64,000 nucleotides of DNA from an uncultured Candidatus Saccharibacteria bacterium (GTDB lineage Bacteria > Patescibacteriota > Minisyncoccia > UBA6257 > 1-14-0-10-44-23): the NCBI GenBank assembly GCA_964549935.1, contig CAZJVT010000001.1:91922-155921 (forward strand), given 5' to 3'. Shown in pieces: positions 5,876 to 59,708 of this stretch (position 1 is the first letter of the stretch; the number at the start of each line of letters is the position of its first letter). The notes beneath the pieces are model-generated. The model worked only from the letters and a program-made list of their open reading frames with translations. It was not told the DNA's origin and ran no database searches. The position numbers and the translations under genes are program-made.

Positions 5876-5965
5876 AGTAGTTAGTAGACAGTAGTCAGTA
5901 GTTAGGCCTTAGAAATAGGGTACCACGGGTTCGGGCCCTCCTGTCTACTGTCTACTAGCCCCTGT

Positions 5966-6322
5966 CTACTGTTTTACGGTGCTCGTGCCGGGGACGATGT
6001 TGATCTGCTGGCCCTTGATAGGCTCCGGCAAGGTCGTCGTCGCGGTCGCGGTCGTGCTGGTTGCCGTGACCGAAGTGTCCGGTGCTACCGGAGACGGGTG
6101 GTAAAAGAGGCTGGCGAGTGCGAGTCCGGCAAAGACAACGATTAAGACGACGGTCAGCCAGTAAAAGGCTCGCTCAAGTCCGCGGCGCTGCTGGTAAAAG
6201 CCGCCACCCCCGCCACCGCCACCCAAAAAGCCCGAGACATCACTGTCGCGCTGCTGGAGGAGGATAAGGATGATAAGAGCAACAGAAACAACGATCTGGG
6301 CGATGATAATAGCTTGCTGCAT
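5966..6322 (-). CDS. secG: Preprotein translocase subunit SecG with a Ser/Thr-rich C-terminal extension
   Basis: Two TM segments flank a Gly-rich loop (FLGGGGGGGGF), typical of SecG. Confidence 0.65.
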   Translation of the reverse strand: MQQAIIIAQIVVSVALIILILLQQRDSDVSGFLGGGGGGGGFYQQRRGLERAFYWLTVVLIVVFAGLALASLFYHPSPVAPDTSVTATSTTATATTTLPEPIKGQQINIVPGTSTVKQ

Positions 6323-6342
6323 AAAGGGGATGGTGCGAGGAC

Positions 6343-6699
6343 CTATGATTTCGGTCGGTGCACGATATGAATAAGTACGTTGACGATAGTTATAATAAGT
6401 GTGCCCGCTACGAGTGCCGGCAATCCATTGATAGTAAGGTTTTGGCTGTACAAGTCAAGGATGTACAGTAGGGCGCCGGTAATAACCAGGTTAAAAAGAC
6501 CGAAGGTCAGTAGGATGAGCGGGCCAAGGAAGAAGCGGATCAGCGGCTTGATAACGACGTTTAAAACCGTGAAAACGCCGACCAGAGCGGCAAAGGCCTC
6601 CAAGTTCGAAAGGCTAAGATTGAAGCCGGCGATAAAATAGGCACTCGCGGCTATGGCGATTGCGTTACCGATAAGGCTCCAGATGAGTTGGACGAGCAT
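6343..6699 (-). CDS. Small 4-TM membrane protein of the DUF360/phage-holin-4-like family
   Basis: 118 aa with four hydrophobic helices and IKPL..LGPL..LLTFGLFNLV motifs like those of PF04020. Confidence 0.4.
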   Translation of the reverse strand: MLVQLIWSLIGNAIAIAASAYFIAGFNLSLSNLEAFAALVGVFTVLNVVIKPLIRFFLGPLILLTFGLFNLVITGALLYILDLYSQNLTINGLPALVAGTLIITIVNVLIHIVHRPKS

Positions 6700-6780
6700 A
6701 TGTTTAGTTTAACACGGGGCGGGGGGAACAGGCGGAGTGGCGTCATCATCGAGATGACACCACTCCAGCGGAGAAGACGA

Positions 6781-7026
6781 TCAGCCGTTGAACTTCGGCT
6801 CTTCGTCCTTCTCGTCCAAGCCCATGATGCGTCGCTCCCAAGATGTCGGGGGCGCCCACACGTCATAGGCTTGATCTGGCTGCGGCGGGGGTTCGACAGG
6901 GCGTTCGTGACGGTCGAGTCGCGGTCCAATCGGACGCAGCGATTTGACCGCGTCTTGCGCCTTCTTCAGCGCGCGGAAGCGCTTCGAACGTTGCCGAGTG
7001 CTGGACGGCTTCTTCTTTCCGGTCAT
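6781..7026 (-). CDS. Hypothetical basic/Pro-rich protein (81 aa) with a strong Shine-Dalgarno
   Basis: AAAGAGGAGGTG lies 6 nt upstream of the ATG on the minus strand. It is co-directional with the membrane protein and secG downstream. Confidence 0.5.
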   Translation of the reverse strand: MTGKKKPSSTRQRSKRFRALKKAQDAVKSLRPIGPRLDRHERPVEPPPQPDQAYDVWAPPTSWERRIMGLDEKDEEPKFNG

Positions 7027-7096
7027 GCGTACACCTCCTCTTTTTAGAGTAACAGCTTGCGCCCGCGTGTCAAAGGGAGGGGGCGGCCAAGGAAGA

Positions 7097-7116
7097 ATAT
7101 CTCATATATGATATAT
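7097..7116. promoter_or_regulatory. Near-palindromic operator-like site ATATcTCATATATGAtATAT (variant of ATATCATATATGATAT)
   Basis: Read directly; there is one mismatched pair. It is the first of two sites upstream of the HTH-murA gene. Confidence 0.45.
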
Positions 7117-7179
7117 TCCTGGAGGTAGAAAGCAGATTTAGCCCTATTATCAGCAGTTATCCACTTAGAATTACCAGAT

Positions 7180-7199
7180 TTATATCATATATGATATAA
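7180..7199. promoter_or_regulatory. Perfect 20-bp palindrome TTATATCATATATGATATAA (core ATATCATATATGATAT)
   Basis: Read directly. The same 16-bp core recurs at 19244, 37947 and (as a variant) 7097. Confidence 0.5.
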
Positions 7200-7245
7200 T
7201 GTACGAACTATGCCAAAACAAGCAAAAACACCACTTTCACCGTTT

Positions 7246-7379
7246 CCCCGTAGTACAAACTCGGTGTTTGCGCTTTGCGCTAAACATTTCAGAGCCAATT
7301 AAATTTTTCCTGCAATACCTTTTTACCAACATAATTTATTTCTACTTGTCCGAGCCGAGTTTGACTCCAAGGGCAGGCA
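7246..7379 (+). promoter_or_regulatory. Conserved 5' leader upstream of HTH-murA: block1 CCCCGTAGTACAAACTCGGTGTTTGCGCT and block2 CCGAGTTTGACTCCAAGGGCAGGCA
   Basis: Both blocks recur in gene orientation upstream of msrA (38500-38633 on the minus strand). The blocks contain mutually complementary CAAACTCGG/CCGAGTTTG segments. Confidence 0.5.
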
Positions 7380-7385
7380 CGCCAC

Positions 7386-39016: not shown

Positions 39017-39191
39017 AGCCTAATCATAGACGATAAACAAGAAACAATAAACAAGTACAGAGGAGGCAGTGGATTACCCACCTATGCCGGTTTTTGGTGT
39101 GGAGGTATACTTACTCTATCGGTCGCTGGTCGAACGACCGTAGTATTGTTTAAGACTCAAAACTACTATGGAAGGAAAAGGAGGATGCTGT

Positions 39192-39434
39192 ATGGTATCG
39201 AAGATCGCTAAGATCTTAATAATCATCGGTGCTATCAACTGGGGTCTTGTCGGTTTGGGCTGGCTCTTTGGCGGCGCAGACTGGAACGTGGTCCACATGA
39301 TTTTCGGAAGCTGGATGACCGTCGAAGCAATCATTTACTTGCTTGTCGGTATCGCCGGTGTGATGAAAATCTTCGGCTGCCGCTGCAAGATGTGCACGGC
39401 CTGCACTGCAGGAGGCGAGCACGCTGCCCACTAA
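39192..39434 (+). CDS. DUF378-family small membrane protein with a Cys-rich C-terminal tail (CRCKMCTACTAGGEHAAH)
   Basis: GAINWGLVGLGWLFG motif. A terminator follows at 39446-39478. Confidence 0.55.
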   Translation: MVSKIAKILIIIGAINWGLVGLGWLFGGADWNVVHMIFGSWMTVEAIIYLLVGIAGVMKIFGCRCKMCTACTAGGEHAAH

Positions 39435-41832: not shown

Positions 41833-42168
41833 TCAGAGCTTTGAAGCCAGCACGACGGCAAAGGCATACTCACCATCGTGTGAGATGCTGCATTCCAGTG
41901 CCAAACCTTCGGATTTTTCGTCTTTGATGATGAGCACCGGTTTACCGGAGTCTTCGTGTCGTACCTCGATATCCAGCCACTGATCGTTGCGAAGTCCGAG
42001 CGCTTTGATAGAGGCCTCTTTAACCGCAAAGATGCCGGATAAGTGTTCGGCGTTTGTACCGGTAAGCTCGCTCGGGTGAAAAAGTTTGGCGAGCAGGTTT
42101 TTGTCGGACAACATTTTCTCGACCCGGTTGATTTTGACGATGTCGCAGCCGATGTGGTTTTTAATCAT
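41833..42168 (-). CDS. acpS: Holo-[acyl-carrier-protein] synthase (4'-phosphopantetheinyl transferase)
   Basis: GCDIVKINRV and FAVKEASIKALG motifs; 111 aa. Confidence 0.8.
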   Translation of the reverse strand: MIKNHIGCDIVKINRVEKMLSDKNLLAKLFHPSELTGTNAEHLSGIFAVKEASIKALGLRNDQWLDIEVRHEDSGKPVLIIKDEKSEGLALECSISHDGEYAFAVVLASKL

Positions 42169-44650
42169 GTGTTTTGAATTTTTGTTCTAACTCTTCAGTG
42201 GCTTGTATATACGAGATTGTCTTTGGGAATCGAACGGGGCGACCGATGTGCGCCGTCGTGACGCCGTGGCGGGGGAGACTCGCGCCCTTCGGCAGGAGTT
42301 CGAAGTTGCCTTGGAGCTGAATAGGCACGATGGGCACGTCCATTTCCTGCGCGATAATGCCGATACCTTTCTTAAACGGGTGCAGTTTGCCGTCCTGGCT
42401 GCGTGTGCCTTCCGGGTAGATGATGAGCGACCATCCGGCGTCTAAGAATTTGCCGATCTGTGAGAAGTTTTCGTGGACGTTGGTGTCGCGGTCGAGCGGG
42501 AAGGCGTTAAAAAGCAGTGCGGCCAGAAAGGCTTTGCCGGGACTTGTGAAGAAATAATCTTTGGCTGCGGCGACCACCACCTTGCGCCGGATTCTAAGCG
42601 GCAGAGCCTTGAGAATCGTGGAGGTGTCCAGGTGGCTGGTGTGGTTGGCGATAAAAACAAAGGGCCCATTGCCGTGCAGATGTTCTGTGCCGGCAACGAC
42701 CAGCTTTTGGCGTAGCGCCATTACGGCAAACAGAATAGCTTGTAGCACGAGGCGCAGTGCCACAGCCGGTAAGGTAAGTGGCCACTTTTTTACGGCGTTC
42801 TGCTTTTTTGATTTCTCTTCAGAGGCGATATATTTTCGCAAATCCGCGACAGTGGTCTTTGCGTTAATGATTGTTTCGTCGAGCAGCGCGCCGAGATCCT
42901 CTTCGAAGCGCGAAACCATCTCCAGGCGCTTGATGGAGTCCATTTTCAGGTCGAGGGTTAGTACGCTGCTGTCGGTTATCGAGCCGGCGGGGAGTCCGGT
43001 GATTTCGCCGAGTATCTTGCAGAGCTCGTCAGTTTGTTTATTGCTCGCTGTTGCCTCGTGCGGACCGTTTGCAAGGAGGGTGAGTGCCTGTTTGTAGACG
43101 GCGTCACGCACCACTTTGCGAGTCGGAGTTCGGGGGAAGTCTGACCCGGGCCAGAGCAAGAAGTTTTGGATTTTTTGGTGCGAGGCGAGGTGTTCGTTGG
43201 CGGCGCTGATAATTTGCTTCGGTTCTTTTGTCTCTTCCCGCAGCAGCAAAACAGCTGTGAGCTCGATGTCGGCATTTTCGCGGGGGACACCGATTACGAC
43301 GCTGTCTTTTACTCCCGGCACTGCGTTTAAGACCTCCTCAATGTCTTCGGGGTAAATCTTCATACCTCCGGCACCAACCAGCATATTTTTCCGCCTGCCG
43401 GTTAAAAACAAAAAGCCATCCTGGTCCAGTTTGCCAATGTCGCCGGTTTTCAGCCAACCGTCCGCAAAAATTTTATGTGTTGCCTCCTGATCGCCGTAAT
43501 AGCCGGAGGTGATGTTGTCTCCCTGCGCGAGAATCTCTCCGTCTTCGGTGATTTTAATCTTTTGGCCGGGGAGCGCTCTGCCGACGGAGTGGGCTTTGTG
43601 CGTCTTAAGCGAATTAACGCTGACAAGCGGTGAGCCCTCGGTTAATCCGTAGCCCTGTAAAATAGTTACACCGATACTAGCCCAGAAGTCTTCGATGTTT
43701 GCGGCCAGTGGCGCGCCGCCGACAAAAAAGTTATTGAGATCTCTGCCGACCGCGGCCCGTACCTTTGCAAAAAGAATCTTTTTTAAAAACGCGGGCAGGG
43801 GAGCGGCGAATTTCAGCAACGAGGCGAAGCCTTTTTCGGCGCCGGCTTTTTTGACACCGCGTTCGATAGTGTCTTTCAGCAGTTTCAAAAAGATTGGCGT
43901 GCAGACGACCGAGGTGATTTTTTCTTCACGAATGGCGCGGGTTATTTCAATCGGCTTGATGGTATACGGGTAGCTGATTCGTGAGTCGAGCATGATTGGC
44001 ACGCAGAGGCCGACGGTCTGCTCGAGCAGGTGGCTTAGCGGGACTATCGAAAGAAATTTCTGATTCGGGGCGATTTGCACTGCTTCGCAAAGCGACTGCG
44101 CGTTGGCGATCAGGTTTCTGTGCTTAATCATCACGCCCTTGGGCGTACCGGTGCTGCCGGAGGTGAAAACAATTTCGAGCAGGTCCTCTTCGGTTATCTG
44201 CGGGCGTTCCGGCTGGTGGCCGCGTAGCGTGCTTAGTTCCTGTTCCAGATTTTCGACAAGGACGGTCGGGCAACCGATGTTTGCAGCGAGCGGTTTGTAA
44301 AAGGAGGTAAACAAAAGTTTTGCCTCCGTTTTTGCAATAATCGCTCGGATGAATTCGTCCGTTGAATTAAAGTCGAGTGGAACGAGTACGATGCCTTGCT
44401 GCGCACAGGCAAAAAAGATTGCCGCCCAGAGCGGGTGATTGTAGGAGCAGAGTGCGACGCGGTCACCCTTTTGCAGGCCCCGACTAATGAGCAGCTTTTC
44501 AATAGCTCGGACTGTCTCGGCGGTTTTGCGGTAGGTCCAGGGCTTGTTGCGGTATTTTTTGCGCTCGACAAAAAGGATTCGGTCCGGATGACGTAAAAAT
44601 GCAGAGGTAAGAATCGTCGGTAGGATGCGTGGCGCCTTTCCGCTGTTCAT
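42161..44650 (-). CDS. Tri-domain fusion of an AMP-dependent acyl synthetase/ligase, a carrier-protein-like segment and a lysophospholipid acyltransferase (PlsC family); Aas-like but in reversed domain order
   Basis: FTSGSTGTPKGV and GYGLTE adenylation motifs, the central LDLKMDSIKRLEM (DS phosphopantetheine-site-like) segment, and the C-terminal acyltransferase motifs FIANHTSHLD (HxxxxD) and YPEGTRS. Confidence 0.8.
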   Translation of the reverse strand: MNSGKAPRILPTILTSAFLRHPDRILFVERKKYRNKPWTYRKTAETVRAIEKLLISRGLQKGDRVALCSYNHPLWAAIFFACAQQGIVLVPLDFNSTDEFIRAIIAKTEAKLLFTSFYKPLAANIGCPTVLVENLEQELSTLRGHQPERPQITEEDLLEIVFTSGSTGTPKGVMIKHRNLIANAQSLCEAVQIAPNQKFLSIVPLSHLLEQTVGLCVPIMLDSRISYPYTIKPIEITRAIREEKITSVVCTPIFLKLLKDTIERGVKKAGAEKGFASLLKFAAPLPAFLKKILFAKVRAAVGRDLNNFFVGGAPLAANIEDFWASIGVTILQGYGLTEGSPLVSVNSLKTHKAHSVGRALPGQKIKITEDGEILAQGDNITSGYYGDQEATHKIFADGWLKTGDIGKLDQDGFLFLTGRRKNMLVGAGGMKIYPEDIEEVLNAVPGVKDSVVIGVPRENADIELTAVLLLREETKEPKQIISAANEHLASHQKIQNFLLWPGSDFPRTPTRKVVRDAVYKQALTLLANGPHEATASNKQTDELCKILGEITGLPAGSITDSSVLTLDLKMDSIKRLEMVSRFEEDLGALLDETIINAKTTVADLRKYIASEEKSKKQNAVKKWPLTLPAVALRLVLQAILFAVMALRQKLVVAGTEHLHGNGPFVFIANHTSHLDTSTILKALPLRIRRKVVVAAAKDYFFTSPGKAFLAALLFNAFPLDRDTNVHENFSQIGKFLDAGWSLIIYPEGTRSQDGKLHPFKKGIGIIAQEMDVPIVPIQLQGNFELLPKGASLPRHGVTTAHIGRPVRFPKTISYIQATEELEQKFKTHD

Positions 44651-44702
44651 TACGTGTAATAATACTAAATTTTGGGCACTTTAGCACGGCGCAATCCGGC
44701 TC

Positions 44703-44722
44703 TTGACACGGTTGGTATAATG
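44703..44722 (+). promoter_or_regulatory. Strong extended -10 promoter (TTGACA then TGGTATAAT) with no ORF downstream
   Basis: TTGACA at 44703-44708 and TGG+TATAAT at 44713-44721. The 7-nt spacing means the extended -10 probably drives initiation. Confidence 0.5.
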
Positions 44723-44727
44723 GACGG

Positions 44728-44872
44728 ACCAGGTTAGTTCTGCGCTGATTGTTGAGCGCCGGACTTTGTCGGACCTGGCGAACGGTAATCTACTATTCGA
44801 CTATTATGGACGGAACAAAGGGAGGTTGCAGCTGCTAAGGCAGTTTGCTCCGGGCGCGCCTACTGGCGCGCC
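44728..44872 (+). ncRNA. Candidate small RNA of about 145 nt with its own promoter and terminator; weak resemblance to SRP (4.5S) RNA domain IV
   Basis: Starts about 7 nt after the -10 and ends at the hairpin CCGGGCGCGCC-TACT-GGCGCGCCCGG followed by TTTGTT. The internal GUCGGACCUGGCGAACGG and GCAGCUGCUAAGGCAG resemble the SRP RNA helix-8 strands GUCAGGUCCGGAAGG and GCAGCCAAGGCAG. Confidence 0.35.
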
Positions 44873-45038
44873 CGGTTTGTTATGCACTTTCTTTTTTTTA
44901 GTAATGTCTCTATGCTGAAAGTGTAGCTCCCGATTGTCAGGCGGGAGAGGGTACCAGGAGGAAGCCTCTTGCGAAGGAGCCATCGTTGGTTCCGCGCGCG
45001 TTGGCCGTATCAGTCGCCCAGAAGGTGACTAGCGGCCC

Positions 45039-45057
45039 GGAAGGAGGTGATCCAGCC
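45039..45057 (-). other. Exact mimic of the 16S rRNA 3' terminus on the minus strand (GGCUGGAUCACCUCCUUCC), preceded by an h45-like hairpin. On the plus strand this reads as a perfect extended Shine-Dalgarno, GGAAGGAGGTGATCC, with no start codon.
   Basis: 17/17 identity to the conserved GGCUGGAUCACCUCCUU 3' tail. The surrounding minus strand carries at least three more CCUCC motifs. Confidence 0.4.
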
Positions 45058-45250
45058 AACGTAGGGCTAAGTAGACCCTACGAATCAGTTCGGCTTATAC
45101 CCGACTGACGCGCATCGCACGGACTGTTCCAACCGGCGGATAGTCATAGGTCCCCCGGTCGCCGTGTCGCTCGGTGGAGGTCTTGCCCGAAGCTCGACCT
45201 CCACCACCCACCCTCTGTGCATAAGATGTGGACTGTAGTCAAATTCCCGC

Positions 45251-45285
45251 ATAGCGGGATACTTTTTTATCTTTTTGTCCAGCAT
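45251..45285 (+). terminator. Rho-independent terminator-like hairpin (cccgcatagcgggatacttttttatcttttt)
   Basis: CCCGC/GCGGG stem followed by T-runs. Confidence 0.45.
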
Positions 45286-45553
45286 TTTGGGGCCCTTTTT
45301 GGACGGTATACTTAAGGAGAACTTCGCGAAAGTTCTTAGTCTCCTGATCAGAGACTTACCGTCGATAATTAACCGCGTTACTCAATACCAGTAGTGCGCG
45401 CAAGACTCACAAATCTAAAATTATGGACACAGTCAAAGCATTAGTAGGAGGCTCGGGTAAGCCGCAGCCGGGACAGCCGATGCCGCCGAGCCAGCCAATG
45501 GGAGGACACTAAGAATCTTACAAAAACCCGCCAAACAGGCGGGTTTTTGGTTG

Positions 45554-45586
45554 CAACGGCTCAACGAGCCGCCGTTGAGCCGTGAG
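45554..45586. repeat. Dispersed palindromic intergenic element, copy 1 (CAACGGCTCAACGAGCCGCCGTTGAGCCGTGAG)
   Basis: Inverted repeat CGGCTCAACG/CGTTGAGCCG. Related copies lie at 49215, 54473 and 59692. Confidence 0.7.
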
Positions 45587-45603
45587 AATATGCGAGAGTA
45601 GTT

Positions 45604-46509
45604 TTACTTAAACATCACCGTCCCGCTATCAAGCTTGAGGTCAAAAATAAGTTCACCCTTCGAGGTAAAGTGGAAGCTCTTGGTCTGGTTAAGCAGTTTG
45701 GCGAAGTCGGACTCCTGCGAGCCCTGACAAAACATCTGCGTGGACATGATATCGCTAAACGTCAGGTTCGTTCCGTTTACGGTATATGTTCCGCCGCCGT
45801 TATTACAGTCAGTGGCCATATCGAACTGGTTGTTGGTGCGGAATGTCAGCTTAAAGGCATCGATTTTGACCGGTGCGAGCACCTTGCCATCGCTGTAGGT
45901 CGCGCTGATCCAGGTCCAGGGTTTCATCGTGAGAGTCATGCGGCTTGGATCAGCCTCGCCCTCGAAGTTTTGTGCCACCTCGCCAAACTTCATCGTCGGG
46001 ATATCGAGGAGAAGCCAGATGCTTTTGCCGACGGACGGTTGCACACTAAAGCTCTCGCCGGTTTTGCGGTCCGCGTAGTTGACGATGACGATGTTACCTT
46101 TGCCCATCTCGGTCGTCTGCGGGGCTATACGGTCACCGAGTAAGACGGCGTCCGAGCCGACGTAGCCATTAATAGTATTCAGCGCTGCGACGACGTAGTA
46201 GTATACGCCGGTGCCGCCGGTTTCTTGTGTAAGCAGGAAGGCGACATCCTGACGCCCGTCGCCGTTAAAGTCGTGCTGCACCGCGTTACCAAAGTAGCGT
46301 GTTGTAATTTTTGAAGCCGAGCCCGGAGCCGCCTCGACTGAAGAAACGCCGCCCGTAAGCTTGACCGGAGTGCCGGCGATTATGTAAGTCGCATCCTTTT
46401 CGCTGGTCGTTGCCGTCTGCTCTTTGACGGTAGTACTGTTGTTAAAAATAAGGAAGGCGATGACGACTATGATAATGGCCCCGACTGCGTACAGGATTTT
46501 TTTGTTCAT
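45604..46509 (-). CDS. Membrane-anchored protein with a C-terminal META/HslJ-like domain
   Basis: N-terminal TM segment. The C-terminal DCNNGGGTYTVNGTNLTFSDIMSTQMFCQG matches the META (DUF306) core. Confidence 0.6.
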   Translation of the reverse strand: MNKKILYAVGAIIIVVIAFLIFNNSTTVKEQTATTSEKDATYIIAGTPVKLTGGVSSVEAAPGSASKITTRYFGNAVQHDFNGDGRQDVAFLLTQETGGTGVYYYVVAALNTINGYVGSDAVLLGDRIAPQTTEMGKGNIVIVNYADRKTGESFSVQPSVGKSIWLLLDIPTMKFGEVAQNFEGEADPSRMTLTMKPWTWISATYSDGKVLAPVKIDAFKLTFRTNNQFDMATDCNNGGGTYTVNGTNLTFSDIMSTQMFCQGSQESDFAKLLNQTKSFHFTSKGELIFDLKLDSGTVMFK

Positions 46510-46726
46510 AATGACAAAGTATAAAGTTTTCCGGCCCGGCAGGCCAGGGGTGTATAGATTAAGACGCAGACCTTCGCAAAGTATTACGATTCCCCAGATG
46601 ATTATCTTGCGGTGTAATGGTATGCTTTTTAAAACGGCTTAGATACCCACGCGGTAAAAAGCGTAATCTCAAAGGTCGCGCGACAGTTAAAAAAATATAA
46701 TCCAGCATTACTATATAAAAATACCT

Positions 46727-47695
46727 ATGCAAAAAAGTAGTTTTCGATATTTCGCAGCCGCAGTTGCAACGCTTTCAGTCCTTAGTTTCTTCCCGGCTCT
46801 CGCTTCCGCGGAGACGATCAGCGTGAACTTTGAAACGCCGACCTACACCCTTGGTGTGATTAACGCGCAGGACGGTTGGAGCAGCTTGGGTGCGGCCGGA
46901 CTTGGTTGCGCAGTCTATGATCACGCGGTTAATAGCAGCTTGAGCACGCCGGGCTTCGGCGGTCAGAGTCTGCGTATCTCAAACGCGGTTGTGAGCGGTT
47001 GCTTTGGCGACCAGACGTTTGCCAAGCCGCTTACTAACGCGGTCGGTGAGGCTGCGGCAACAGCCGGAGCTTTTTCCGTCGGCACACTTGCGAGCCATTT
47101 CGAGAGTGAGTTCGCGCTTGCCTCCGCCGTACCGGGCGCACAGCAGCCGGACTTGTACTTGTCAGTCTCTCCGGATCGAGGCGACGGCTCGCGTATGAGC
47201 TACCTCCGCTTCGAAGATCAGCCGGACGGCATCCACGCCTTCTTTGATGACGTAACCAGTACCCAGACGCCAAACAGCGATCAGTTCAATGAAACTGACA
47301 TTGCCACGCTTAACCGCAGTACGCCACACGTCGTGAAGTTTGTGATGGATATGGTAAATGGTCCGTCTAACGACGTCGTAAAGGTATACATCGATGGAGT
47401 CCTGAAGATTACCGGCACGAGCTGGGAGGATTACTACCGCTACGACAGCGAGGCAGCCGCCGAGCAGAGCCCGCGCATCATTAAGACGCTGCTCTTCCGC
47501 ACCGGTGGTGGGACAAACTACCCGGCGCTCTCGGGCAACGGCTTCTTAGTAGACAACCTTTCTTTGCAGTCCGGTCCGGTGCTTTTGACGCCGACGGATA
47601 AGAATCAGTGCAAGAAGGACGGTTGGCAGACCTTCAACAACCCGGTCTTTAAAAACCAGGGTCAGTGCGTAAAGTTTGTCGAGACCGGCAAATAG
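46727..47695 (+). CDS. Secreted hypothetical protein (signal peptide ending at ALASA)
   Basis: ORF with a clear Sec signal peptide, followed by the terminator at 47720-47752. Confidence 0.5.
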   Translation: MQKSSFRYFAAAVATLSVLSFFPALASAETISVNFETPTYTLGVINAQDGWSSLGAAGLGCAVYDHAVNSSLSTPGFGGQSLRISNAVVSGCFGDQTFAKPLTNAVGEAAATAGAFSVGTLASHFESEFALASAVPGAQQPDLYLSVSPDRGDGSRMSYLRFEDQPDGIHAFFDDVTSTQTPNSDQFNETDIATLNRSTPHVVKFVMDMVNGPSNDVVKVYIDGVLKITGTSWEDYYRYDSEAAAEQSPRIIKTLLFRTGGGTNYPALSGNGFLVDNLSLQSGPVLLTPTDKNQCKKDGWQTFNNPVFKNQGQCVKFVETGK

Positions 47696-47804
47696 TCAGC
47701 AAAAGACCAGATCTTTTTCCAAAACCCGCGTGCAAGCGGGTTTTGGGTTTTTTGTGCCCCGCTTCCGCGCCCCACGGCGCGGAAGCGGGGATATGCACAC
47801 CCGC

Positions 47805-47836
47805 AGTTGCCGGATTACAGCGTGGTTTGGTATACT
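47805..47836 (+). promoter_or_regulatory. Promoter TTGCCG-18-TGGTATACT upstream of the SAM riboswitch
   Basis: The hexamers and spacing were read directly. Confidence 0.45.
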
Positions 47837-47851
47837 GCTTGCACAACTAAA

Positions 47852-48025
47852 TAAGTATCAAGAGCGTGGCGAGCGCAACCGGCGCAACGACCCACCAGCA
47901 ACCTGCGAAAGCAAGGTGCTAATTCGGCTTCGGTCCGCCAAAGCATTCTGCGACGGCGACTCCCGGGGGAAGATAACCGTTTCATATTAAACACCTTCCC
48001 ACTCGGAAGGCGTTTTTGTTTTGAT
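47852..48025 (+). promoter_or_regulatory. SAM-I (S-box) riboswitch with an expression-platform terminator, upstream of metK
   Basis: TATCAAGAG P1 5' strand, GCAACC, AAGGTGCTAATTC and closing AGATAAC match the S-box consensus blocks. The terminator hairpin CCTTCC/GGAAGG plus T-run lies at 47993-48025. Confidence 0.65.
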
Positions 48026-48172
48026 TTTTGCTCGGCAAAAATCACCCCGTGAGACGTGAGCACAAGCTCGCTGTCTCTCCGGGGTATTCAGTGCTTATCA
48101 CTAATTAATAACTTCCCGCCTCCGTTCTTACCGATTAACTGATTAACTAATTAACCGATTAACTACCCCCCC

Positions 48173-49213
48173 ATGTATCAACCCCAAACCTACACCGTCG
48201 AAAGCGTTACAAACGGCCACCCAGACAAAGTCTGCGATCAAATCAGCGATGCAATTTTAGACGCGCTGCTTACCCAGGATCCTTTAAGCCGCGTCGCCGT
48301 CGAGACCTTTGGCGGGCACGACCTCTTAGTCATTGGCGGCGAGGTCACGACCCGGGCCAAAGTGAATTACGAAAAAATCGCCCGCAGCGTCTACCGCGAG
48401 ATTGGTTACGACGACAAGGCACTCAAAGTCATCGTCCACGTCGTGCAGCAGTCGCCGGATATCGCCATGGGCGTAGATACCGGTGGTGCCGGCGACCAGG
48501 GGATTATGTACGGCTACGCGACAAATGAGACGCCGGAGTTACTCCCGCGCGCCGTCGTGCTGGTACACAAGCTGGCCCAGGGCCTCGAAAAGCTGCGCAC
48601 GAGTAAAAAATTGAAGTGGTTAAAGCCCGACGGCAAGACGCAGATTTCTGTCCACAACGGCAAGATTACTTCGGTACTCGTAAGCACCCAGCATGATGCC
48701 GCCGTCTCGCAGGAGCAGCTGCGCGCGGATTTACTTAAGCATTTGATTACGCCGATAATCGGGGACCTCGCTGGCATCGAGGTGCTGACCAATCCGACCG
48801 GGCTGTTTGTCCAGGGCGGCTTTTCGGCGGACACGGGGCTCACAGGGCGCAAGATTATGGTGGACACGTATTGCGGCTTAGCCCCGCACGGTGGCGGAGC
48901 CTTCTCCGGCAAGGACGCGACCAAGGTAGACCGCAGTGCGGCGTATATGTGTCGCCACGTCGCCAAGTGGCTGGTCAAAAAGGGGTATGCCAAACAGGCT
49001 CTCGTTTCGGTATCGTACGCCATTGGCCGCGCCGAACCGCTGATGATCGAGGCGATCAACGAAAAAGGCAGGTCGCTCGCGTCAGTGGTCAAAAAGAACT
49101 TCGACTTCAAACCGAAGGCGATTATAGACAAGCTCGGCCTAAGAAAGCCCGTCTTTCGCCAAACGGCAGCTTACGGCCACTTCGGGAAGCGGGGCCTAAG
49201 TTGGGAGAAATAA
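48173..49213 (+). CDS. metK: S-adenosylmethionine synthetase
   Basis: GHPDKVCDQISDAILDA, GGGAFSGKDATKVDRS and related MetK motifs. Confidence 0.9.
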   Translation: MYQPQTYTVESVTNGHPDKVCDQISDAILDALLTQDPLSRVAVETFGGHDLLVIGGEVTTRAKVNYEKIARSVYREIGYDDKALKVIVHVVQQSPDIAMGVDTGGAGDQGIMYGYATNETPELLPRAVVLVHKLAQGLEKLRTSKKLKWLKPDGKTQISVHNGKITSVLVSTQHDAAVSQEQLRADLLKHLITPIIGDLAGIEVLTNPTGLFVQGGFSADTGLTGRKIMVDTYCGLAPHGGGAFSGKDATKVDRSAAYMCRHVAKWLVKKGYAKQALVSVSYAIGRAEPLMIEAINEKGRSLASVVKKNFDFKPKAIIDKLGLRKPVFRQTAAYGHFGKRGLSWEK

Positions 49214-49214
49214 C

Positions 49215-49249
49215 CTCAACGGCTCAACGGGCTACCGTTGAGCCGTTGA
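49215..49249. repeat. Dispersed palindromic intergenic element, copy 2 (CTCAACGGCTCAACGGGCTACCGTTGAGCCGTTGA), at the left border of the R-M island
   Basis: 15-bp perfect inverted repeat with a 4-nt loop. Confidence 0.75.
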
Positions 49250-49292
49250 TTGAAAAAAGGGCCTAAAAGTGAGATGATGGTCATGCACAAAT

Positions 49293-50837
49293 ATGGCTAC
49301 ACTGAATTGGATCGGGAAAGATGCCGTTGTAAATCATGATAAGGAAGTGCCTTTTAAGCTTATTCAAAAGATACCGGGTAATTCCGTTGGTAAAGAGTCT
49401 AAGAATCTGATCATCCACGGGGACAACCTTGAGGCGCTCAAGGCGTTGATGCCTTTTTACAAAGACAAGATTAAGTGCATTTATATTGATCCTCCATACA
49501 ACACCGGGAGCGAGGAATGGGTCTACAACGATAAAGTCAATTCTCCGAAAATCCACGAATGGATAAAAAAAGTTGTAGGACGAGAAGGCGAAGATCTTAC
49601 ACGACACGATAAATGGCTTTGTATGATGTATCCTCGTCTCAAGCTTCTTCGAGATCTTTTGGCTGAAGACGGGGTGATATTCATATCAATTGACGACAAC
49701 GAGCATTCTAACTTGAAGCTCGTAATGGATGAAATTTTCCAAGCAAAGAATTTTGTCACTAATATTGTCTGGCAAAAATCTTATTCGCCAGTCAATCTAC
49801 GTAAGAATTTTTCTCCTAACCATGATTTCATCATAGTTTATGCGAAGAATATTTCTAGCTTAAAACTTAATCAACTGAGTCGGAGCGAAGAAGCGATCCA
49901 AAGATACAAGAATCCTGACAATGACTCAAGGGGGCCTTGGAAATCAACAGATCTTTCTGTGGGTCCAGCAGTAAAAGAAAATATTTATGAAATCCTTACC
50001 CCAAAAGGGCGGAGTATTTTGCCTCCCAAGGGCAGGAGTTGGGTGTTGAATAAAAAGAGATTTCAGGAATTTTTGAACGACAAGCGTATCTGGTTTGGGG
50101 CAAACGGCAATGCCGTTCCTTCAATTAAGAAATTTCTCTCAGAAGTCAAGCCGGGCGTAACTCCAATGACAGTTTGGACTTATCAAGAGGTCGGGCATAA
50201 TCAAGATGCGAAGCGAGAGGTAAAAGAGATCCTTGAGCAGGAGTCGCCGTTTGAGACGCCGAAACCCTTAGGTTTGCTAAGGCGGATTCTTGAGATAGGC
50301 ACATTGCCGAACGATATCATACTTGATTCTTTTGCTGGTTCTGGTACGACCGGCCAAGCAGTTTTGGGGCTCAATAAGGAGGACGGAGGGAATAGGCAGT
50401 TTATCTTGGTGGAGATGGAAGATAGGATTGCAAAAAGTGTCACAGCTGAAAGAATTAAAAGGGCAATTAAAAAGTACGAATACAAAGCAGGTTTTGAGTT
50501 CTGCGAACTCGCTAAGCCTCTATTCGATGCGCAAGGGCAAATCAATGAGAATTGCTCGTATGATGATCTGGCGACCTATATTTATTTCGCCGAAACTCAA
50601 ACAAATACTGAGAAGAAAAATATCAAGAAGCCATTAATCGGTGAAAGCCAGGGGGTTTTCTACTACCTTCTTTTTGCCGAAAAGGGCAAAAATGATCTTA
50701 CTCGCAGTGCGCTTACGAAACTTAAACTCAAGGGGCAGGCTGTCGTATATGCTGATCGCTGCCTTATTGACGAGGACGAACTTAAGGCGAAAGGAGTTAT
50801 CTTCAAGCAAATCCCATACGAGATAAAAGTTTATTAA
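49293..50837 (+). CDS. mod: Type III restriction-modification Mod-like N6-adenine DNA methyltransferase
   Basis: The DPPY catalytic motif (IYIDPPYNTG) precedes the FxGxG SAM-binding motif (FAGSGTTG), the beta-class order typical of Type III Mod. Confidence 0.8.
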   Translation: MATLNWIGKDAVVNHDKEVPFKLIQKIPGNSVGKESKNLIIHGDNLEALKALMPFYKDKIKCIYIDPPYNTGSEEWVYNDKVNSPKIHEWIKKVVGREGEDLTRHDKWLCMMYPRLKLLRDLLAEDGVIFISIDDNEHSNLKLVMDEIFQAKNFVTNIVWQKSYSPVNLRKNFSPNHDFIIVYAKNISSLKLNQLSRSEEAIQRYKNPDNDSRGPWKSTDLSVGPAVKENIYEILTPKGRSILPPKGRSWVLNKKRFQEFLNDKRIWFGANGNAVPSIKKFLSEVKPGVTPMTVWTYQEVGHNQDAKREVKEILEQESPFETPKPLGLLRRILEIGTLPNDIILDSFAGSGTTGQAVLGLNKEDGGNRQFILVEMEDRIAKSVTAERIKRAIKKYEYKAGFEFCELAKPLFDAQGQINENCSYDDLATYIYFAETQTNTEKKNIKKPLIGESQGVFYYLLFAEKGKNDLTRSALTKLKLKGQAVVYADRCLIDEDELKAKGVIFKQIPYEIKVY

Positions 50838-50841
50838 TTTC

Positions 50842-51417
50842 ATGTTGCAAAAATTATATAAAACCACGAATCCAAGCCTTTTATGGGAGATTCGGGAGAA
50901 CACGGCCGGATACGATTATGTTTATTCGGAGCCATTTTGCTCCAACGATTCATGTCGTGTGCCTTTAGATCAAGCTTATCTTGGGACTAATAAGACAGGT
51001 CAATATATAAGCGGTTGGCTTTGTTCAAATTGCAAAAAAGAATATGAGTGTCCCGGCAATGACTATCAATCATTCGTCCAATCAATCCAGAAAAAATACG
51101 AAGGCTTTATTCGGCAGCGTCATGAAATAATTTCATTAGATTTAATTCCTACAAAAGTAGCTGCTGGTGCCGAGGATGAGCATTTTTGGCTGCGGGCGCG
51201 GATATTAGAAAAAAATGGCAAAAGACAAGCCGTCATTTTCATAGGAGAAAAAATAAAAGGAAAGCAGGAAAAAACCGATTATGCCCAGCTATTTCTTGAC
51301 CTAGAAGATGAGCAGGTTCGTTTCGATAAAAATAATAAAAATCCGATGGGGTTACTTTGTAGGTTGACGGCTGAATTCGAAAATTCAAGTACCGCTCTTT
51401 CTAAGAAGGGTAATTAA
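50842..51417 (+). CDS. Hypothetical Cys-rich (zinc-ribbon-like) protein encoded between mod and res
   Basis: CSNDSC...CSNCKKEYEC four-Cys cluster. It has 5-nt gaps to both neighbours and a low GC like the flanking R-M genes. Confidence 0.5.
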   Translation: MLQKLYKTTNPSLLWEIRENTAGYDYVYSEPFCSNDSCRVPLDQAYLGTNKTGQYISGWLCSNCKKEYECPGNDYQSFVQSIQKKYEGFIRQRHEIISLDLIPTKVAAGAEDEHFWLRARILEKNGKRQAVIFIGEKIKGKQEKTDYAQLFLDLEDEQVRFDKNNKNPMGLLCRLTAEFENSSTALSKKGN

Positions 51418-51422
51418 TAGAT

Positions 51423-53699
51423 ATGAAGCTAAAGAACTATCAGCAAAACGCTATAGATACGCTTGACCAGTTTTTGGTGCAGCTTAAGAAATTGAAGCCT
51501 CGCTATGCTTTCACCGAGGTAACCAACGAGCATTACAACCATGAATGGTTTGGCGATGTGCCGTTTGTCTGTATGCAAATGCCGACTGGTGCTGGTAAAA
51601 CCCTTGTGGCTTGTAAATCAGTCGAGCGGATTATGTCCACTATCCTGCAACACAAGATGGATACAGGCATCGTTATTTGGTTCGTGCCTTCAGATTCCAT
51701 TAAGACGCAGACGCTTAAAAAACTCCGAGACTCCAATGATTGGCACTACGAAATGATCAATGAGGCATTCGAGTCTAAGTTTAAGGTATTTTCTAATGAA
51801 GACGCTCTTTCGATGACGCGCGAGGATGTGCGGAACAATCTTTGCATTATAGTTGCTAGTCTTGATGCTTTCCGGAAGGAGGCCAAGATCCAAAACAAGT
51901 ATAAGGTGTACAAAGAGAATGGTGCATTAATGGATCATTTCCAGAATCTTAAGGATGATTCATCGCTCGAAAAAGATTCTGAGGGTACTGTCATCAACTC
52001 TCTCGCGAACGTTATCCGCAAGAACACTCCGCTGATCGTTATCGATGAGGGTCATCACACCCAAACCGAACTATCAGTGCAGTTTTTGGGCGACTTAAAA
52101 CCATCATTCATTATTGAATTCACGGCGACGCCGCGGGAAGGCAGTAATATCCTGGTGCATACGAACGCCTCCGAACTAAAAATCGAAGAGATGGTTAAGA
52201 TCCCGATCGTACTTGAAAGCCGCACGCAGTGGGAGCAGGTTGTCGCAGACGGTATTGCTAAGCGAGCTGAGCTAGAAAAGCGCGCTAGTAAGCTCAAAGG
52301 AGAGCGCATTCGCCCCATCGCATTGCTACAGGCCCAACCGAAGAGCAAGACAAAGGCAACGGTTACCGTGGAGGCGCTCAAGCAGATGCTTCTTGATAAA
52401 AAGATTCCTGAGGAGCAAATCAAGATTAAAACGTCGGAGCTCGACGAACTCGAGGGGATGGATCTCTTCGATAAGAAGTGTGAGGTGCGCTATATTTTGA
52501 CCGTAAATGCCCTTGCTGAGGGCTGGGACTGCTCTTTTGCTTATGTCCTTATCTCCGTTGCCAATCTTGGTGCTAAAGTTGCCGTTGAGCAAATCATTGG
52601 GCGCGTTATCCGTATGCCGAACGCGAAGCGCAAGGCGGACGAAGCTCTGAACCGTAGCTACGTGTTTGCTTCTGCTGCGAATTTTAATGACGCCGCCAGT
52701 AAAGTAATTAAGGGGCTTGAGGATAACGGATATAGCCGCAGTGATTTTATTGGCGCAGACAAAGAACAAGAATATACTGATCCGTTTGAGACAAAGAAGG
52801 CAATCAAGAAGAAACTCGCGGTGCCCCTGATGGCAATTGGCAAAAACAAGCTTTCATTCGAAGATCTTCTCGGAGAGGATTTTGAGCTCGCAAAGCAGAA
52901 TCCCGATTTTGATTTTCGGTTCCATTACGACCTTGACGGCCAAGCTACGATTGACATTAGCGAGGATAATGAATGGCTACGGGACAAGCAGCTCTCGCTC
53001 CCGTATCAATACCTCGAAGGCAATCATTCGGTCGACGAACTCGTGATGTGGCTTGATAAGAAGCTGCGTTTTCCGATGTTGAAACCGGGAGATAAGATTA
53101 CTTTTATTGCCAAAGCTGTCGATAGCCAAATCCAGAAGCGCCAACTTTCACTCCCTAAGCTGTCTGTTAATCGCTATTTATTTGCCGAACGTCTTTCAGA
53201 TGTAATCAATAATTTACTGGAGAGCTTTACTAAGAAAGCATGCGCCGGCCTTCTTGCGGAAAAGAAATTAATCGTCGCGACTTTCGAGGAATTCCCGTCT
53301 ACTATCGCGCTCAAGTCTCCTGTTCCCAAGGTATTCAATAAAAACCTATATGAGCGAGTTGATGCTATCAATGGAGAGGAACGTGGCTTTGTTGAGCGAA
53401 TTGATTTGGGCGCTCTCGAGAACATTGATTTCTGGGTTCGCAACCGTGAAAAAGTTGACCCCTTTTATATCCAAGGATGGAAGCGAGGTAAATTTTACCC
53501 CGATTTTATTGCGGTTACTAACAAAGGAGCCATTATTGCCTTAGAATGGAAAGGCGAAGATAGATTAGACAATCCAGATACGCTTTACAAAACAGAGATT
53601 GCTGAGAATTGGGCCAAGTTGGGTAAAGGCAAGCTTCACTTTTTCTTGGTTCACAGCAAGAACGTTGATGAGGTTCTAGAAAAAGTCAAAAAACTTTAA
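51423..53699 (+). CDS. res: Type III restriction enzyme Res-like subunit (SF2 helicase plus a C-terminal PD-(D/E)xK nuclease)
   Basis: Walker A MPTGAGKT, DEAH-box VIDEGHH and a C-terminal YPDF...ALEWKG nuclease motif. Confidence 0.8.
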   Translation: MKLKNYQQNAIDTLDQFLVQLKKLKPRYAFTEVTNEHYNHEWFGDVPFVCMQMPTGAGKTLVACKSVERIMSTILQHKMDTGIVIWFVPSDSIKTQTLKKLRDSNDWHYEMINEAFESKFKVFSNEDALSMTREDVRNNLCIIVASLDAFRKEAKIQNKYKVYKENGALMDHFQNLKDDSSLEKDSEGTVINSLANVIRKNTPLIVIDEGHHTQTELSVQFLGDLKPSFIIEFTATPREGSNILVHTNASELKIEEMVKIPIVLESRTQWEQVVADGIAKRAELEKRASKLKGERIRPIALLQAQPKSKTKATVTVEALKQMLLDKKIPEEQIKIKTSELDELEGMDLFDKKCEVRYILTVNALAEGWDCSFAYVLISVANLGAKVAVEQIIGRVIRMPNAKRKADEALNRSYVFASAANFNDAASKVIKGLEDNGYSRSDFIGADKEQEYTDPFETKKAIKKKLAVPLMAIGKNKLSFEDLLGEDFELAKQNPDFDFRFHYDLDGQATIDISEDNEWLRDKQLSLPYQYLEGNHSVDELVMWLDKKLRFPMLKPGDKITFIAKAVDSQIQKRQLSLPKLSVNRYLFAERLSDVINNLLESFTKKACAGLLAEKKLIVATFEEFPSTIALKSPVPKVFNKNLYERVDAINGEERGFVERIDLGALENIDFWVRNREKVDPFYIQGWKRGKFYPDFIAVTNKGAIIALEWKGEDRLDNPDTLYKTEIAENWAKLGKGKLHFFLVHSKNVDEVLEKVKKL

Positions 53700-53703
53700 T
53701 TTT

Positions 53704-54168
53704 ATGAATATTGATTTTTCACGGAAATTGATCAAAGGCAGAATCGCTGAAGTTATTTTTGAGCAAATGATCCGGGAAGAGGAGCGATATACTGTGATTC
53801 CATTTGGGTATGAGCACACGATGCCGACTTTATCGCAGTATCGTGCCATAGCTGAAGTTCCTAAAATCATCGACAACATTGCAGATGCGCCGGACTTTGC
53901 TTTGGTGTCTGAGGATAAAACGAAGATCTACTTGGTAGAAGTTAAATATCAAAAGAATTTCGATATAGAAAAAGTGAAAGAATGCGCGGCGAAATTGCGC
54001 GGGCGCTGGGAATATCCGTGGCTTTTTATCGCAACTCCACAGAGATTTTATTGCGGAATGGCGCAGGATATTCTTCGAGAAGGGAGTATCCACGAATTAT
54101 CGGAGAATTGGGTTAATAAAGACCGCCAACTCGCATATTTGAAATTACTAAACGAATTCGAAAAATAA
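53704..54168 (+). CDS. Hypothetical protein with a possible PD-(D/E)xK nuclease-like motif (PDFALV...YLVEVKY)
   Basis: Its motif pattern resembles that of the Res C-terminus. It is 5 nt downstream of res. Confidence 0.4.
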   Translation: MNIDFSRKLIKGRIAEVIFEQMIREEERYTVIPFGYEHTMPTLSQYRAIAEVPKIIDNIADAPDFALVSEDKTKIYLVEVKYQKNFDIEKVKECAAKLRGRWEYPWLFIATPQRFYCGMAQDILREGSIHELSENWVNKDRQLAYLKLLNEFEK

Positions 54169-54173
54169 TCTTC

Positions 54174-54470
54174 ATGACTCCAATTACATACTTCATACTC
54201 GGACTGGTGGTGGGTGGGGTGGTGCTTCTTTTGTGGTTGCGGCGTAGCAAGACCGGGCTCATCGCCCGGCAGCAGGGCGAGAAGGCCGCGCACAAGCAGG
54301 CCATCATCGCTGCCTTTGCCGGAAAGGGCCAACTGACCAACGACGAGGTCCAAAAGCTGCTTGGGGTTAGTGATGCAACCGCGACGAGGTATATGGATGA
54401 GCTCGAAAAGGAGGGCAAAGTGAAGCAGGTAGGCCCAACCGGCCAAAACGTATACTACGAGAGGATTTAA
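54174..54470 (+). CDS. Small membrane-anchored winged-helix DNA-binding protein
   Basis: An N-terminal TM segment (ITYFILGLVVGGVVLLLWL) is followed by an HTH (LTNDEVQKLLGVSDATATRYMDELEKEGKV). Confidence 0.45.
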   Translation: MTPITYFILGLVVGGVVLLLWLRRSKTGLIARQQGEKAAHKQAIIAAFAGKGQLTNDEVQKLLGVSDATATRYMDELEKEGKVKQVGPTGQNVYYERI

Positions 54471-54472
54471 GG

Positions 54473-54510
54473 CCTCAACGGCTCAACGGGACGCCGTTGA
54501 GCCGTTGAAG
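54473..54510. repeat. Dispersed palindromic intergenic element, copy 3 (CTCAACGGCTCAACGGGACGCCGTTGAGCCGTTGAAG), at the right border of the R-M island
   Basis: The same 15-16-bp inverted repeat as copy 2. Confidence 0.75.
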
Positions 54511-55442: not shown

Positions 55443-55481
55443 AGAATTAAAGTTAAAGTGAAAGCAAAAAAAGCGAAAGAT

Positions 55482-55748
55482 ATGGACCTCAAGGATCTCG
55501 AAAAGATACACAAAGCACTTGCAAACCGGCGCCGCCTCGCGATCTTAAAGCATTTGAAGCGGCGCCCGGGCGCGACCGTCGGCAGTTTGGCGGAGGCAAT
55601 TTCGCTTTCATTTAAATCGACCTCCAAGCACATGATTATTCTTTCGGCGGTCGGCCTCGTCGAGCGGGAACAGGTGAATTTGAATATGCGATACCGACTT
55701 GCCGGTACGTTGCCGCCAACCGCAAAAGCCGCGATCGAAATTCTCTAG
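55482..55748 (+). CDS. ArsR/SmtB-family metalloregulatory-type HTH transcriptional regulator
   Basis: LANRRRLAILKHL...ATVGSLAEAISLS.KSTSKHM wHTH pattern. An alternative GTG start is at 55458. Confidence 0.7.
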   Translation: MDLKDLEKIHKALANRRRLAILKHLKRRPGATVGSLAEAISLSFKSTSKHMIILSAVGLVEREQVNLNMRYRLAGTLPPTAKAAIEIL

Positions 55749-59666: not shown

Positions 59667-59691
59667 AATTTCTCAAGGCGGAGCGACAGCT

Positions 59692-59708
59692 CGTTGAGCC
59701 GTGAGAAT
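59692..59708. repeat. Partial copy (3' half) of the dispersed palindromic element (CGTTGAGCCGTGAGAAT)
   Basis: Matches the 3' half of copy 1 at 45570-45589. Confidence 0.5.

Follow-up and report, generated by a model that had tools for sequence, protein, structure and literature searches.

The gap at positions 44651-45603 (~950 nt) of the 64-kb stretch of DNA analysed here (hereafter, the window) most likely encodes, to judge from its sequence, a cluster of two or three independently transcribed non-coding small RNAs (sRNAs), all on the plus strand. The second predicted RNA of this cluster (RNA 2, ~350 nt) contains a 19-nt segment that is perfectly complementary to the canonical 3' tail of 16S rRNA. 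The assignment of the gap as a plus-strand non-coding RNA locus appears rather likely, and the complete explanation, namely, an sRNA cluster in which RNA 2 serves as a decoy for the ribosome platform, is proposed tentatively, as possible rather than probable. The window comes from an uncultured member of the Patescibacteria (candidate phyla radiation (CPR), Parcubacteria-type) whose closest named protein relatives belong to Candidatus Harrisonbacteria, Moranbacteria, Kaiserbacteria and similar groups, and the gap is flanked by two minus-strand genes. The sequence features described below are real and not due to chance.

The initial annotation of this region had found no credible open reading frame (ORF), and protein searches lead to the same conclusion. 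The longest ORF in the gap encodes 66 aa; none of the nine gap ORFs is present in a collection of 15 billion proteins that does contain the protein encoded by the neighboring META-domain gene, and the concatenated stop-to-stop translations (>=28 aa, both strands) show no matches with E<=10 among 5.8 billion proteins. A full HMMER search of 1.84 billion representatives started with the 66-aa ORF identifies only two matches, both of them translations of tandem repeats. Given the lack of ORF homologs and domain matches, a protein-coding gene in the gap is not supported.

The first predicted unit starts with promoter P1, an extended -10 element, TGGTATAAT, at 44713-44721 on the plus strand, with the predicted transcription start at A44728. 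A TTGACA at 44703 is not a -35 element because it is located merely 7 nt from the -10 element. The extended -10 element had been recognized in the initial annotation, and it turns out to belong to an over-represented motif, GGTATAMT, with 8 sites in the window (12512, 39104, 44714, 45305, 47829, 55435 and 62079 on the plus strand and 57331 on the minus strand) versus 1.55 expected; none of 100 shuffles reached 8. The motif usually occurs without a -35 element, and two of the eight sites (44714 and 45305) are inside the gap. Among the others, the site at 47829-47836 is located 16 nt upstream of a SAM riboswitch, and several more lie 7-50 nt upstream of gene starts, e.g., that of the ATG at 62093, 7 nt after GGTATACT. 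In contigs from related organisms (L160, L251-L254), GGTATAMT is likewise found upstream of genes and upstream of the SAM riboswitch of a relative. Downstream of the GGTATACT promoters at 39104 and 55435, there are two small plus-strand genes that fall below the 120-aa cut-off of the ORF listing: one encodes an 88-aa membrane protein (39168-39434) and the other a 96-aa protein (55458-55748) that, by eye, resembles helix-turn-helix proteins of the ArsR type.

The transcript starting at P1, denoted RNA 1, would run on the plus strand from 44728 to ~44885-44899 (~155 nt), from the extended -10 promoter to a very strong terminator, and would be a transcript of its own, divergent from the AMP-binding gene (42161-44650), the start of which is 64 nt from P1. 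Its predicted fold (-73 kcal/mol, z = -4.4) consists of a 5' hairpin (44729-44778), a small hairpin (44779-44799), a further hairpin (44831-44844) and the terminator, with a single-stranded GGGAGG at 44819-44825. The terminator predicted here, T1 (44850-44875, plus strand), includes 11 G-C pairs and a UACU loop, and is followed by a U-rich tail extending to 44899, in accord with the terminator that the initial annotation had placed at about 44872; it is one-directional because the minus strand lacks a U-tract. Repeat comparison further identifies a 14/16 copy of the P1 -10/start region (44716-44731), TATTATGGACGGAACA, at 44802-44817 on the plus strand, which may be a nested second promoter.

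RNA 2 is predicted to be a multi-helix RNA of ~350 nt on the plus strand (44922-45277; fold energy -156 kcal/mol, z = -4.1) that would end at its own terminator. Its start is uncertain: transcription could begin at a weak -10 element, TATGCT (44911-44916), or result from read-through of T1. The helices P2, P3, P4a, P4b, P4c, P5 and P6 are perfect or near-perfect local hairpins, and these are the robust part of the predicted structure. In P2 (44955-44971, CAGGAGG-AAG-CCUCUUG), a Shine-Dalgarno (SD)-like strand is paired with an anti-SD-like strand; alternatively, its CCUCUU can pair with GAGAGG at 44945-44950. A junction domain closed by GCGCGU/ACGCGC (44996-45113) holds as its arms P4a (45003-45037), the segment complementary to the 16S tail, P4b (45060-45082, CGUAGGG and CCCUACG separated by 9 nt) and P4c (45086-45107). 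P6, formed by GGUGGAGGUC and GACCUCCACC (45173-45182/45196-45205), has 10 perfect pairs that include GGAGGU/ACCUCC; this is the 10-bp hairpin noted in the initial annotation. Terminator prediction places the end of RNA 2 at T2, a 6-bp hairpin at 45245-45259 followed by UACUUUUUUAUCUUUUU, with the U-tract extending to ~45277; like T1, T2 has a U-tract on the plus strand only. A second terminator had been anticipated, and it exists, although not at the position of about 45285 originally given. All these elements are on the plus strand.

A third unit was absent from the initial annotation. The GGTATACT sequence at 45305-45312 on the plus strand (promoter P3, predicted start at ~45319) is the second GGTATAMT site in the gap, and terminator T3 (45526-45548) is bidirectional, apparently shared by unit 3 (plus strand) and the META-domain gene (minus strand). 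P3 and T3 together therefore delineate a plus-strand unit of ~235 nt (45319-45552), which would be transcribed from its own promoter to its own terminator. It contains hairpins at 45317-45337 and 45338-45356 and a putative 29-codon ORF, MDTVKALVGGSGKPQPGQPMPPSQPMGGH (45423-45512), that is not preceded by an SD and is found in no protein collection searched. Unit 3 may be either an sRNA or a tiny mRNA.

The gap is predicted to be more structured than the window background. Comparison with dinucleotide-shuffled sequences gives z = -4.4 for 44726-44895 and z = -4.1 for 44896-45275; in a scan of 426 plus-strand segments of 150 nt, the six segments that cover 44701-45600 have z-scores from -1.8 to -6.6 versus a background mean of -0.33 (standard deviation 1.56). 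The predicted minimum free energy (MFE) is lower on the plus strand than on the minus strand both for 44726-44895 (-72 vs -55.9 kcal/mol, with 7 vs 3 G·U pairs) and for 44930-45275 (-150.6 vs -142.8 kcal/mol). The G·U pairs that P2, P3, both parts of P4a, and P5 contain on the plus strand become A·C mismatches on the minus strand, where the helices are shorter. Inside the gap, there is neither a promoter motif nor an internal terminator for a minus-strand RNA. Thus, the calculated folding energies, the G·U pairs and the terminators favor the plus strand.

The segment that sets RNA 2 apart is GGAAGGAGGUGAUCCAGCC (DNA: GGAAGGAGGTGATCCAGCC), 19 nt at 45039-45057 on the plus strand, a complement of the canonical 16S 3' tail that is present in a single exact copy within the window. 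A minus-strand blastn comparison with four 16S 3' ends shows that 17 of the 19 nucleotides, GGCTGGATCACCTCCTT, are identical to true 16S 3' ends. For the duplex between the 19-mer and the canonical tail, the predicted energy is -45.9 kcal/mol, versus -11.6 for a strong 8-nt SD. The segment lies between P4a and P4b and, taken alone, folds into a weak local hairpin of five pairs. Neither ATG, GTG, TTG nor any other plausible start codon follows it within 20 nt, the only near-cognate triplet being an ACG that is followed by TAG, so that it is rejected as the ribosome-binding site of a gene. The claims of the initial annotation that the minus strand reproduces the 16S tail and that the plus strand carries an extended SD without a start codon are therefore both correct.

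Such a site is out of keeping with the way genes appear to be translated over these 64 kb. In the interval from -20 to -4, a 5-mer SD is found at 3 of the 54 gene starts (background 3.8%) and a 4-mer SD at 9 of the 54 (background 9.9%), and SD usage is not rescued when any in-frame start in the first 45 codons is allowed. By contrast, a -10-like element is located within -24 to -4 at 14 of the 54 starts versus a background of 3.9%. SD motifs at the background level combined with frequent -10 elements near starts imply that initiation is mostly SD-free and often leaderless, and suggest that leaderless or very-short-leader mRNAs are widespread in this Patescibacteria genome. The AMP-binding gene next to the gap, for example, looks leaderless, with a TAGTATTAT element 8 nt upstream of its ATG. 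Against this background, the gap contains six plus-strand GGAGG motifs per 950 nt, compared to a mean of 1.24; this is the highest density in the window, and counts of five or more are reached only in sliding windows that overlap the gap. The abundance of additional GGAGG motifs had been pointed out before, and it holds.

With these features in hand, the following mechanism can be proposed. RNA 2 would be a decoy for the ribosome platform, in which the 19-nt segment, held by the junction between helices, would pair with the single-stranded 16S tail with a strength that no mRNA of this genome could approach. P6 and P2 would mimic, inside the molecule, the type of SD:anti-SD duplex that ribosomal protein bS21 binds in OLE RNA. 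By binding, RNA 2 might tie up the anti-SD/platform region of 30S subunits, whether by occupation or by titration, or the proteins of this region, for storage, for assembly checking, or for shifting the balance between leaderless and SD-led initiation. Taken on its own, the notion that RNA 2 acts via the 16S tail or the platform proteins is doubtful, and a slightly longer shot is its most specific version, a dedicated trans-acting RNA that pairs with the 16S tail over 17-19 nt, maybe reaching into helix 45, and sequesters, stores or quality-checks 30S subunits or titrates bS21-like proteins. Among the options listed in the initial annotation, an anti-SD- or SD-mimicking RNA is the best remaining one; the strand evidence, the promoter motif and the SD-poor genome strengthen it, although support from covariation and conservation did not materialize.

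The closest parallel is OLE RNA of Bacillota, in which the P6 stem mimics the SD:anti-SD duplex and binds bS21; species with mostly leaderless mRNAs tend to lack this protein (PMC12054373). Like OLE, RNA 2 appears to be a structured non-coding RNA with hairpins in which CCUCC-type and GGAGG-type strands are paired (GGUGGAGGUC/GACCUCCACC in P6 and CAGGAGG/CCUCUUG in P2). Unlike OLE, it comes from Patescibacteria, shows no sequence or Rfam similarity to that family, and has no oapA/oapB/oapC-type neighbors; membership in the OLE family is not supported, given the lack of an Rfam match. RNA 2 also differs from OLE, as reported, in its free 19-nt complement of the whole 16S tail, and protein binding is suggested for RNA 2 by analogy.

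In architecture, units 1 and 3 match ordinary trans-encoded sRNA genes exactly, with a -10 promoter, a length of 150-235 nt and a stem-loop with a U-tract, and unit 1, as in many sRNA genes, is divergent from the neighboring gene. Promoter, absence of a coding frame, stem-loop followed by a U-tract, and confinement to one strand, that is, the features of intrinsically terminated sRNAs, are all present at the level of sequence prediction. Unlike ordinary sRNAs, those of the gap have no known family, conserved seed, identified target or chaperone context, and RNA 2 is larger and more structured. The predicted gap RNAs would be a new orphan member of the ordinary terminated bacterial sRNAs, with one unusual feature. 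That feature recalls the SD-poor Flavobacteria, where the anti-SD is normally occluded and rpsU is autoregulated through an SD element. In both cases, an SD-poor genome keeps one exceptionally strong SD-like site, implying that the conserved 16S tail is put to some special use; in Flavobacteria, the SD precedes a real gene, rpsU, whereas here neither a start codon nor an ORF follows.

Several observations weigh against this interpretation. No convincing promoter can be assigned to RNA 2 itself, T1 is seemingly too strong for much read-through, and no antiterminator was found in the predicted folds of RNA 1. The long-range stems that close the junction of RNA 2 are 6 bp and could have arisen by chance. 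The host 16S gene lies outside the window, so that the complementarity of the 19-mer applies to the canonical tail alone. Of the six GGAGG motifs in the gap, two are inside the 29-codon ORF, where they would encode Gly-Gly, and G+C-rich hairpins are common in other intergenic regions of this genome. Furthermore, no homolog of the locus was found in the ~250 kb of related DNA sampled, which came from relatives with 77-89% MetK identity or from the vicinity of AMP-binding orthologs; blastn searches of phage and plasmid collections gave no matches; and viral contigs do not contain the 19-mer in exact form. With no homolog in any place searched, there is neither covariation nor a sign of selection.

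The conservation in relatives that the initial annotation had proposed as a test is thus lacking in those sampled. The best relatives of the AMP-binding protein in GTDB genomes, JGI metagenomes and the set of 5.8 billion proteins are 43-46% identical, and the regions upstream of the orthologous genes (L160, L001) are unrelated to the gap. Contigs that encode MetK relatives with 77-89% identity (L162, L251-L260, ~120 kb) are rearranged, and blastn, nhmmer, a covariance model and a motif search find nothing similar in them; the covariance model of the junction domain (R1, 44994-45115) recovers only itself, with 159 bits. Homologs with compensatory changes, by which a conserved structured non-coding RNA class is recognized, were found neither in the sampled relatives, nor in the phage and plasmid collections, nor among the called ORFs. 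In viral contigs, the 16-mer AGGAGGTGATCCAGCC has 88 matches, which are phage coding sequences (encoding QGGDPA), true SD+ATG sites and four real 16S ends; no RNA analog is among them. In one family of phage proteins (L166, L167, L169, L179 and ~20 others), AGGAGGTGATCCAGCC lies within the coding sequence (…QGGDPA…) and varies at third codon positions, and in another phage family (L163, L174, L188 and others), it is an SD directly upstream of ATG. Extended complementarity to the 16S tail recurs in phages.

The lack of relatives speaks for the main rival explanation, namely, that the gap is non-functional leftover DNA, either what remains of a lost and possibly foreign gene (its promoter, 5' leader and strong SD) or a stack of G+C-rich terminator or REP (repetitive extragenic palindromic)-like hairpins with a relic SD. 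We consider this explanation unlikely but worth serious attention. The region is an orphan in all searches; phage genes use the 16-mer immediately ahead of ATG as a strong SD of the ordinary kind; other intergenic regions also contain hairpin repeats and strong palindromes; and an assembly break at 45238 maybe reflects population variation. That break is the end of a 4.8-kb Logan contig (L161, SRR14271332), an independent assembly of the same organism that is 100% identical to 45238-50031 of the window. The break is located just to the left of T2, and the other end (50031) is inside a low-G+C stretch; the break could be due to low coverage of the RNA 2 segment or to its variation within the population. 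On the other side, the 19 nt are perfect amid surroundings without a coding signal or a nearby start, and one-step restorations yield only ACG-TAG; several perfect hairpins of 7-10 bp contain plus-strand G·U pairs, unlike a decayed ORF; two promoter motifs and three terminators, all of them intact, share one strand; and the G+C content of the gap equals that of the genome.

For known types of RNA or leader, the window was scanned with Rfam in three ways: the whole window at the gathering score, 44600-45650 on both strands at E<=10, and the whole window at E<=0.05. The first scan detects only 4 tRNAs, and the last one adds only a SAM-I riboswitch (RF00162; 47852-47979, plus strand; 38.1 bits, E = 4e-7) upstream of metK (48173-49213), with a terminator at ~47990-48015. 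This riboswitch is below the gathering score of 44.4 and is missed at the default threshold, which means that in this lineage, members of known RNA classes receive Rfam scores that are too low.

An unlikely alternative to an RNA 1 of its own is a cis-acting leader (riboswitch or attenuator), in which case T1 would gate transcription into RNA 2 and the two would form a single regulated transcript. The arrangement of a promoter, a structured leader of ~125 nt, a strong terminator and then an element without a clear promoter of its own fits this scheme, and AGCGCCGG (44755-44762) could, by eye, pair with the 5' arm of T1. Nevertheless, at E<=10, the known riboswitch and leader classes match only through the terminator-shaped parts of leader models, which align with the T3 hairpin, and there is no ORF downstream. 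Snapshots of the co-transcriptional fold reveal no competing antiterminator; blocking the 3' arm of T1 costs ~23 kcal/mol, and no alternative helix is gained.

Somewhat less probable again is a functional minus strand, that is, a mimic of the 16S 3' minor domain consisting of a helix-45-like hairpin followed by GGCUGGAUCACCUCCUU, which would be either a decoy or a general anti-SD sRNA and, as a decoy, might target Era, KsgA/RsmA, YbeY, bS21 or an rRNA-cleaving toxin. The 17 nt identical to 16S ends start precisely at the helix-45 base, the adjacent CGUAGGG...CCCUACG (P4b read on the minus strand) resembles, by eye only, the CCGUAGG-GGAA-CCUGCGG of helix 45 in its 7-bp stem, and the minus-strand fold is well below that of shuffled sequences (z = -4.0). 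The resemblance to the 16S domain does not extend further: the hairpin has a 9-nt loop in place of the universal GGAA with its dimethyl-adenosines, there are ~4 extra nucleotides before the tail, and no other 16S similarity is found. Moreover, the gap lacks a promoter motif on the minus strand, and a terminator for this strand is likewise missing downstream of the mimic; several helices lose pairs as G·U becomes A·C, so that the opposite strand is favored; and no gene for a protein that binds the 16S end, or for a toxin, was found among the fifteen window genes that were annotated, including all five nearest to the gap.

The same 17 nt identical to 16S 3' ends are all that speaks for a minus-strand 16S gene or rRNA operon remnant, or for an assembly chimera with its junction at a conserved rRNA word, a very improbable rival that is close to refuted. 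The remnant reading, one of those offered in the initial annotation, fails because the identity to true 16S ends covers only 17 nt and stops abruptly; there is no signal of small or large subunit (SSU, LSU) rRNA or of a spacer tRNA, and a Pfam-supported gene, that of the META-domain protein, occupies the position where the 16S body would be expected. As for a chimera, the sequences to the left and right of the match share the promoter motif and the G+C content, and predicted helices reach across it.

Least probable of all, to the point of being negligible, is a signal recognition particle (SRP) RNA of the 4.5S type together with another RNA, or an RNase P RNA, transfer-messenger RNA (tmRNA) or 6S RNA too divergent for Rfam. 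The initial annotation had proposed SRP RNA on the strength of short resemblances to SRP helix 8, which are confined to RNA 1 (GCAGC..CUAAGGCAG and GGACGGAA), and the under-scoring of the lineage by Rfam could be invoked in its support; but the suggested Rfam search, run on both strands of 44600-45650, identifies no SRP, RNase P, tmRNA, 6S or SSU match with E<=10, whereas the divergent SAM riboswitch scored E = 4e-7 in a separate, comparable search. With bacterial SRP RNA (RF00169/RF01854), RNA 1 shares short purine-rich strings only: both the MFE and the centroid structure of 44726-44895 consist of three separate hairpins plus the terminator, instead of a long hairpin capped by a GNRA loop, with UAAG as the apical loop in the vicinity of GCAGC...AAGGCAG. 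Both the covariance models and the fold thus rule out SRP RNA, and ARAGORN finds no tmRNA or tRNA in the region. Patescibacteria commonly have tRNA genes that are interrupted by a group I intron at position 35/36 (PMC13011429). Such a gene is ruled out here, given that the intron mode of ARAGORN finds nothing at the default setting and Intron_gpI has no match; at a lowered threshold, ARAGORN makes a poor tRNA-Asn-like call with a mismatched acceptor stem and no T-loop.

The genes that flank the gap encode a fusion of AMP-binding, PP-binding and acyltransferase domains (829 aa, 42161-44650, minus strand), which faces the gap with its start, and a Pfam-supported META-domain protein (301 aa, 45604-46509, minus strand), which faces it with its end. 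Between T3 and the META-domain gene lies a palindromic hairpin (45554-45583) that belongs to a dispersed repeat, CAACGGCTCAACG..CGTTGAGCCGTG, with other copies at 49217-49246, 54476-54505 and 59670-59708, just 3' of genes; it looks like a REP-like family or a shared terminator family. Very strong palindromes of 14 and 15 bp (47719-47746 and 47757-47790) directly follow a 322-aa gene, and the 150-nt segment that covers them has the lowest fold z-score of the scan, -8.5. The G+C content is 0.41-0.43 across 49000-54200 versus ~0.50-0.55 elsewhere, with a DNA methylase gene (49293-50837) at the start of this stretch, which may be a restriction-modification island. Another long gap, at 5876-7385, was considered as a second locus of this kind and rejected: it contains three small minus-strand ORFs (5966-7026; 118, 118 and 81 aa), two of which look like membrane proteins. 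A TGATATAAT element is located at 7192, upstream of the gene that starts at 7386.

Regulatory RNAs of Patescibacteria are, to our knowledge, almost unexplored. If the gap consists merely of lineage-specific sRNAs or leftover DNA, the locus still documents a clade-specific promoter motif and a leaderless gene organization. An RNA 2 that does engage the 16S tail would be the first known case of a natural stand-alone RNA directed at the anti-SD, as well as an RNA-based regulator of the ribosome without a described bacterial counterpart. The finding that non-coding RNAs copy the SD:anti-SD duplex, as established for OLE and bS21, would then extend to the reduced genomes of Patescibacteria. Such a role would also offer a reason why a canonical 16S tail is kept in an SD-poor, largely leaderless lineage, a question that applies to SD-poor phyla in general.

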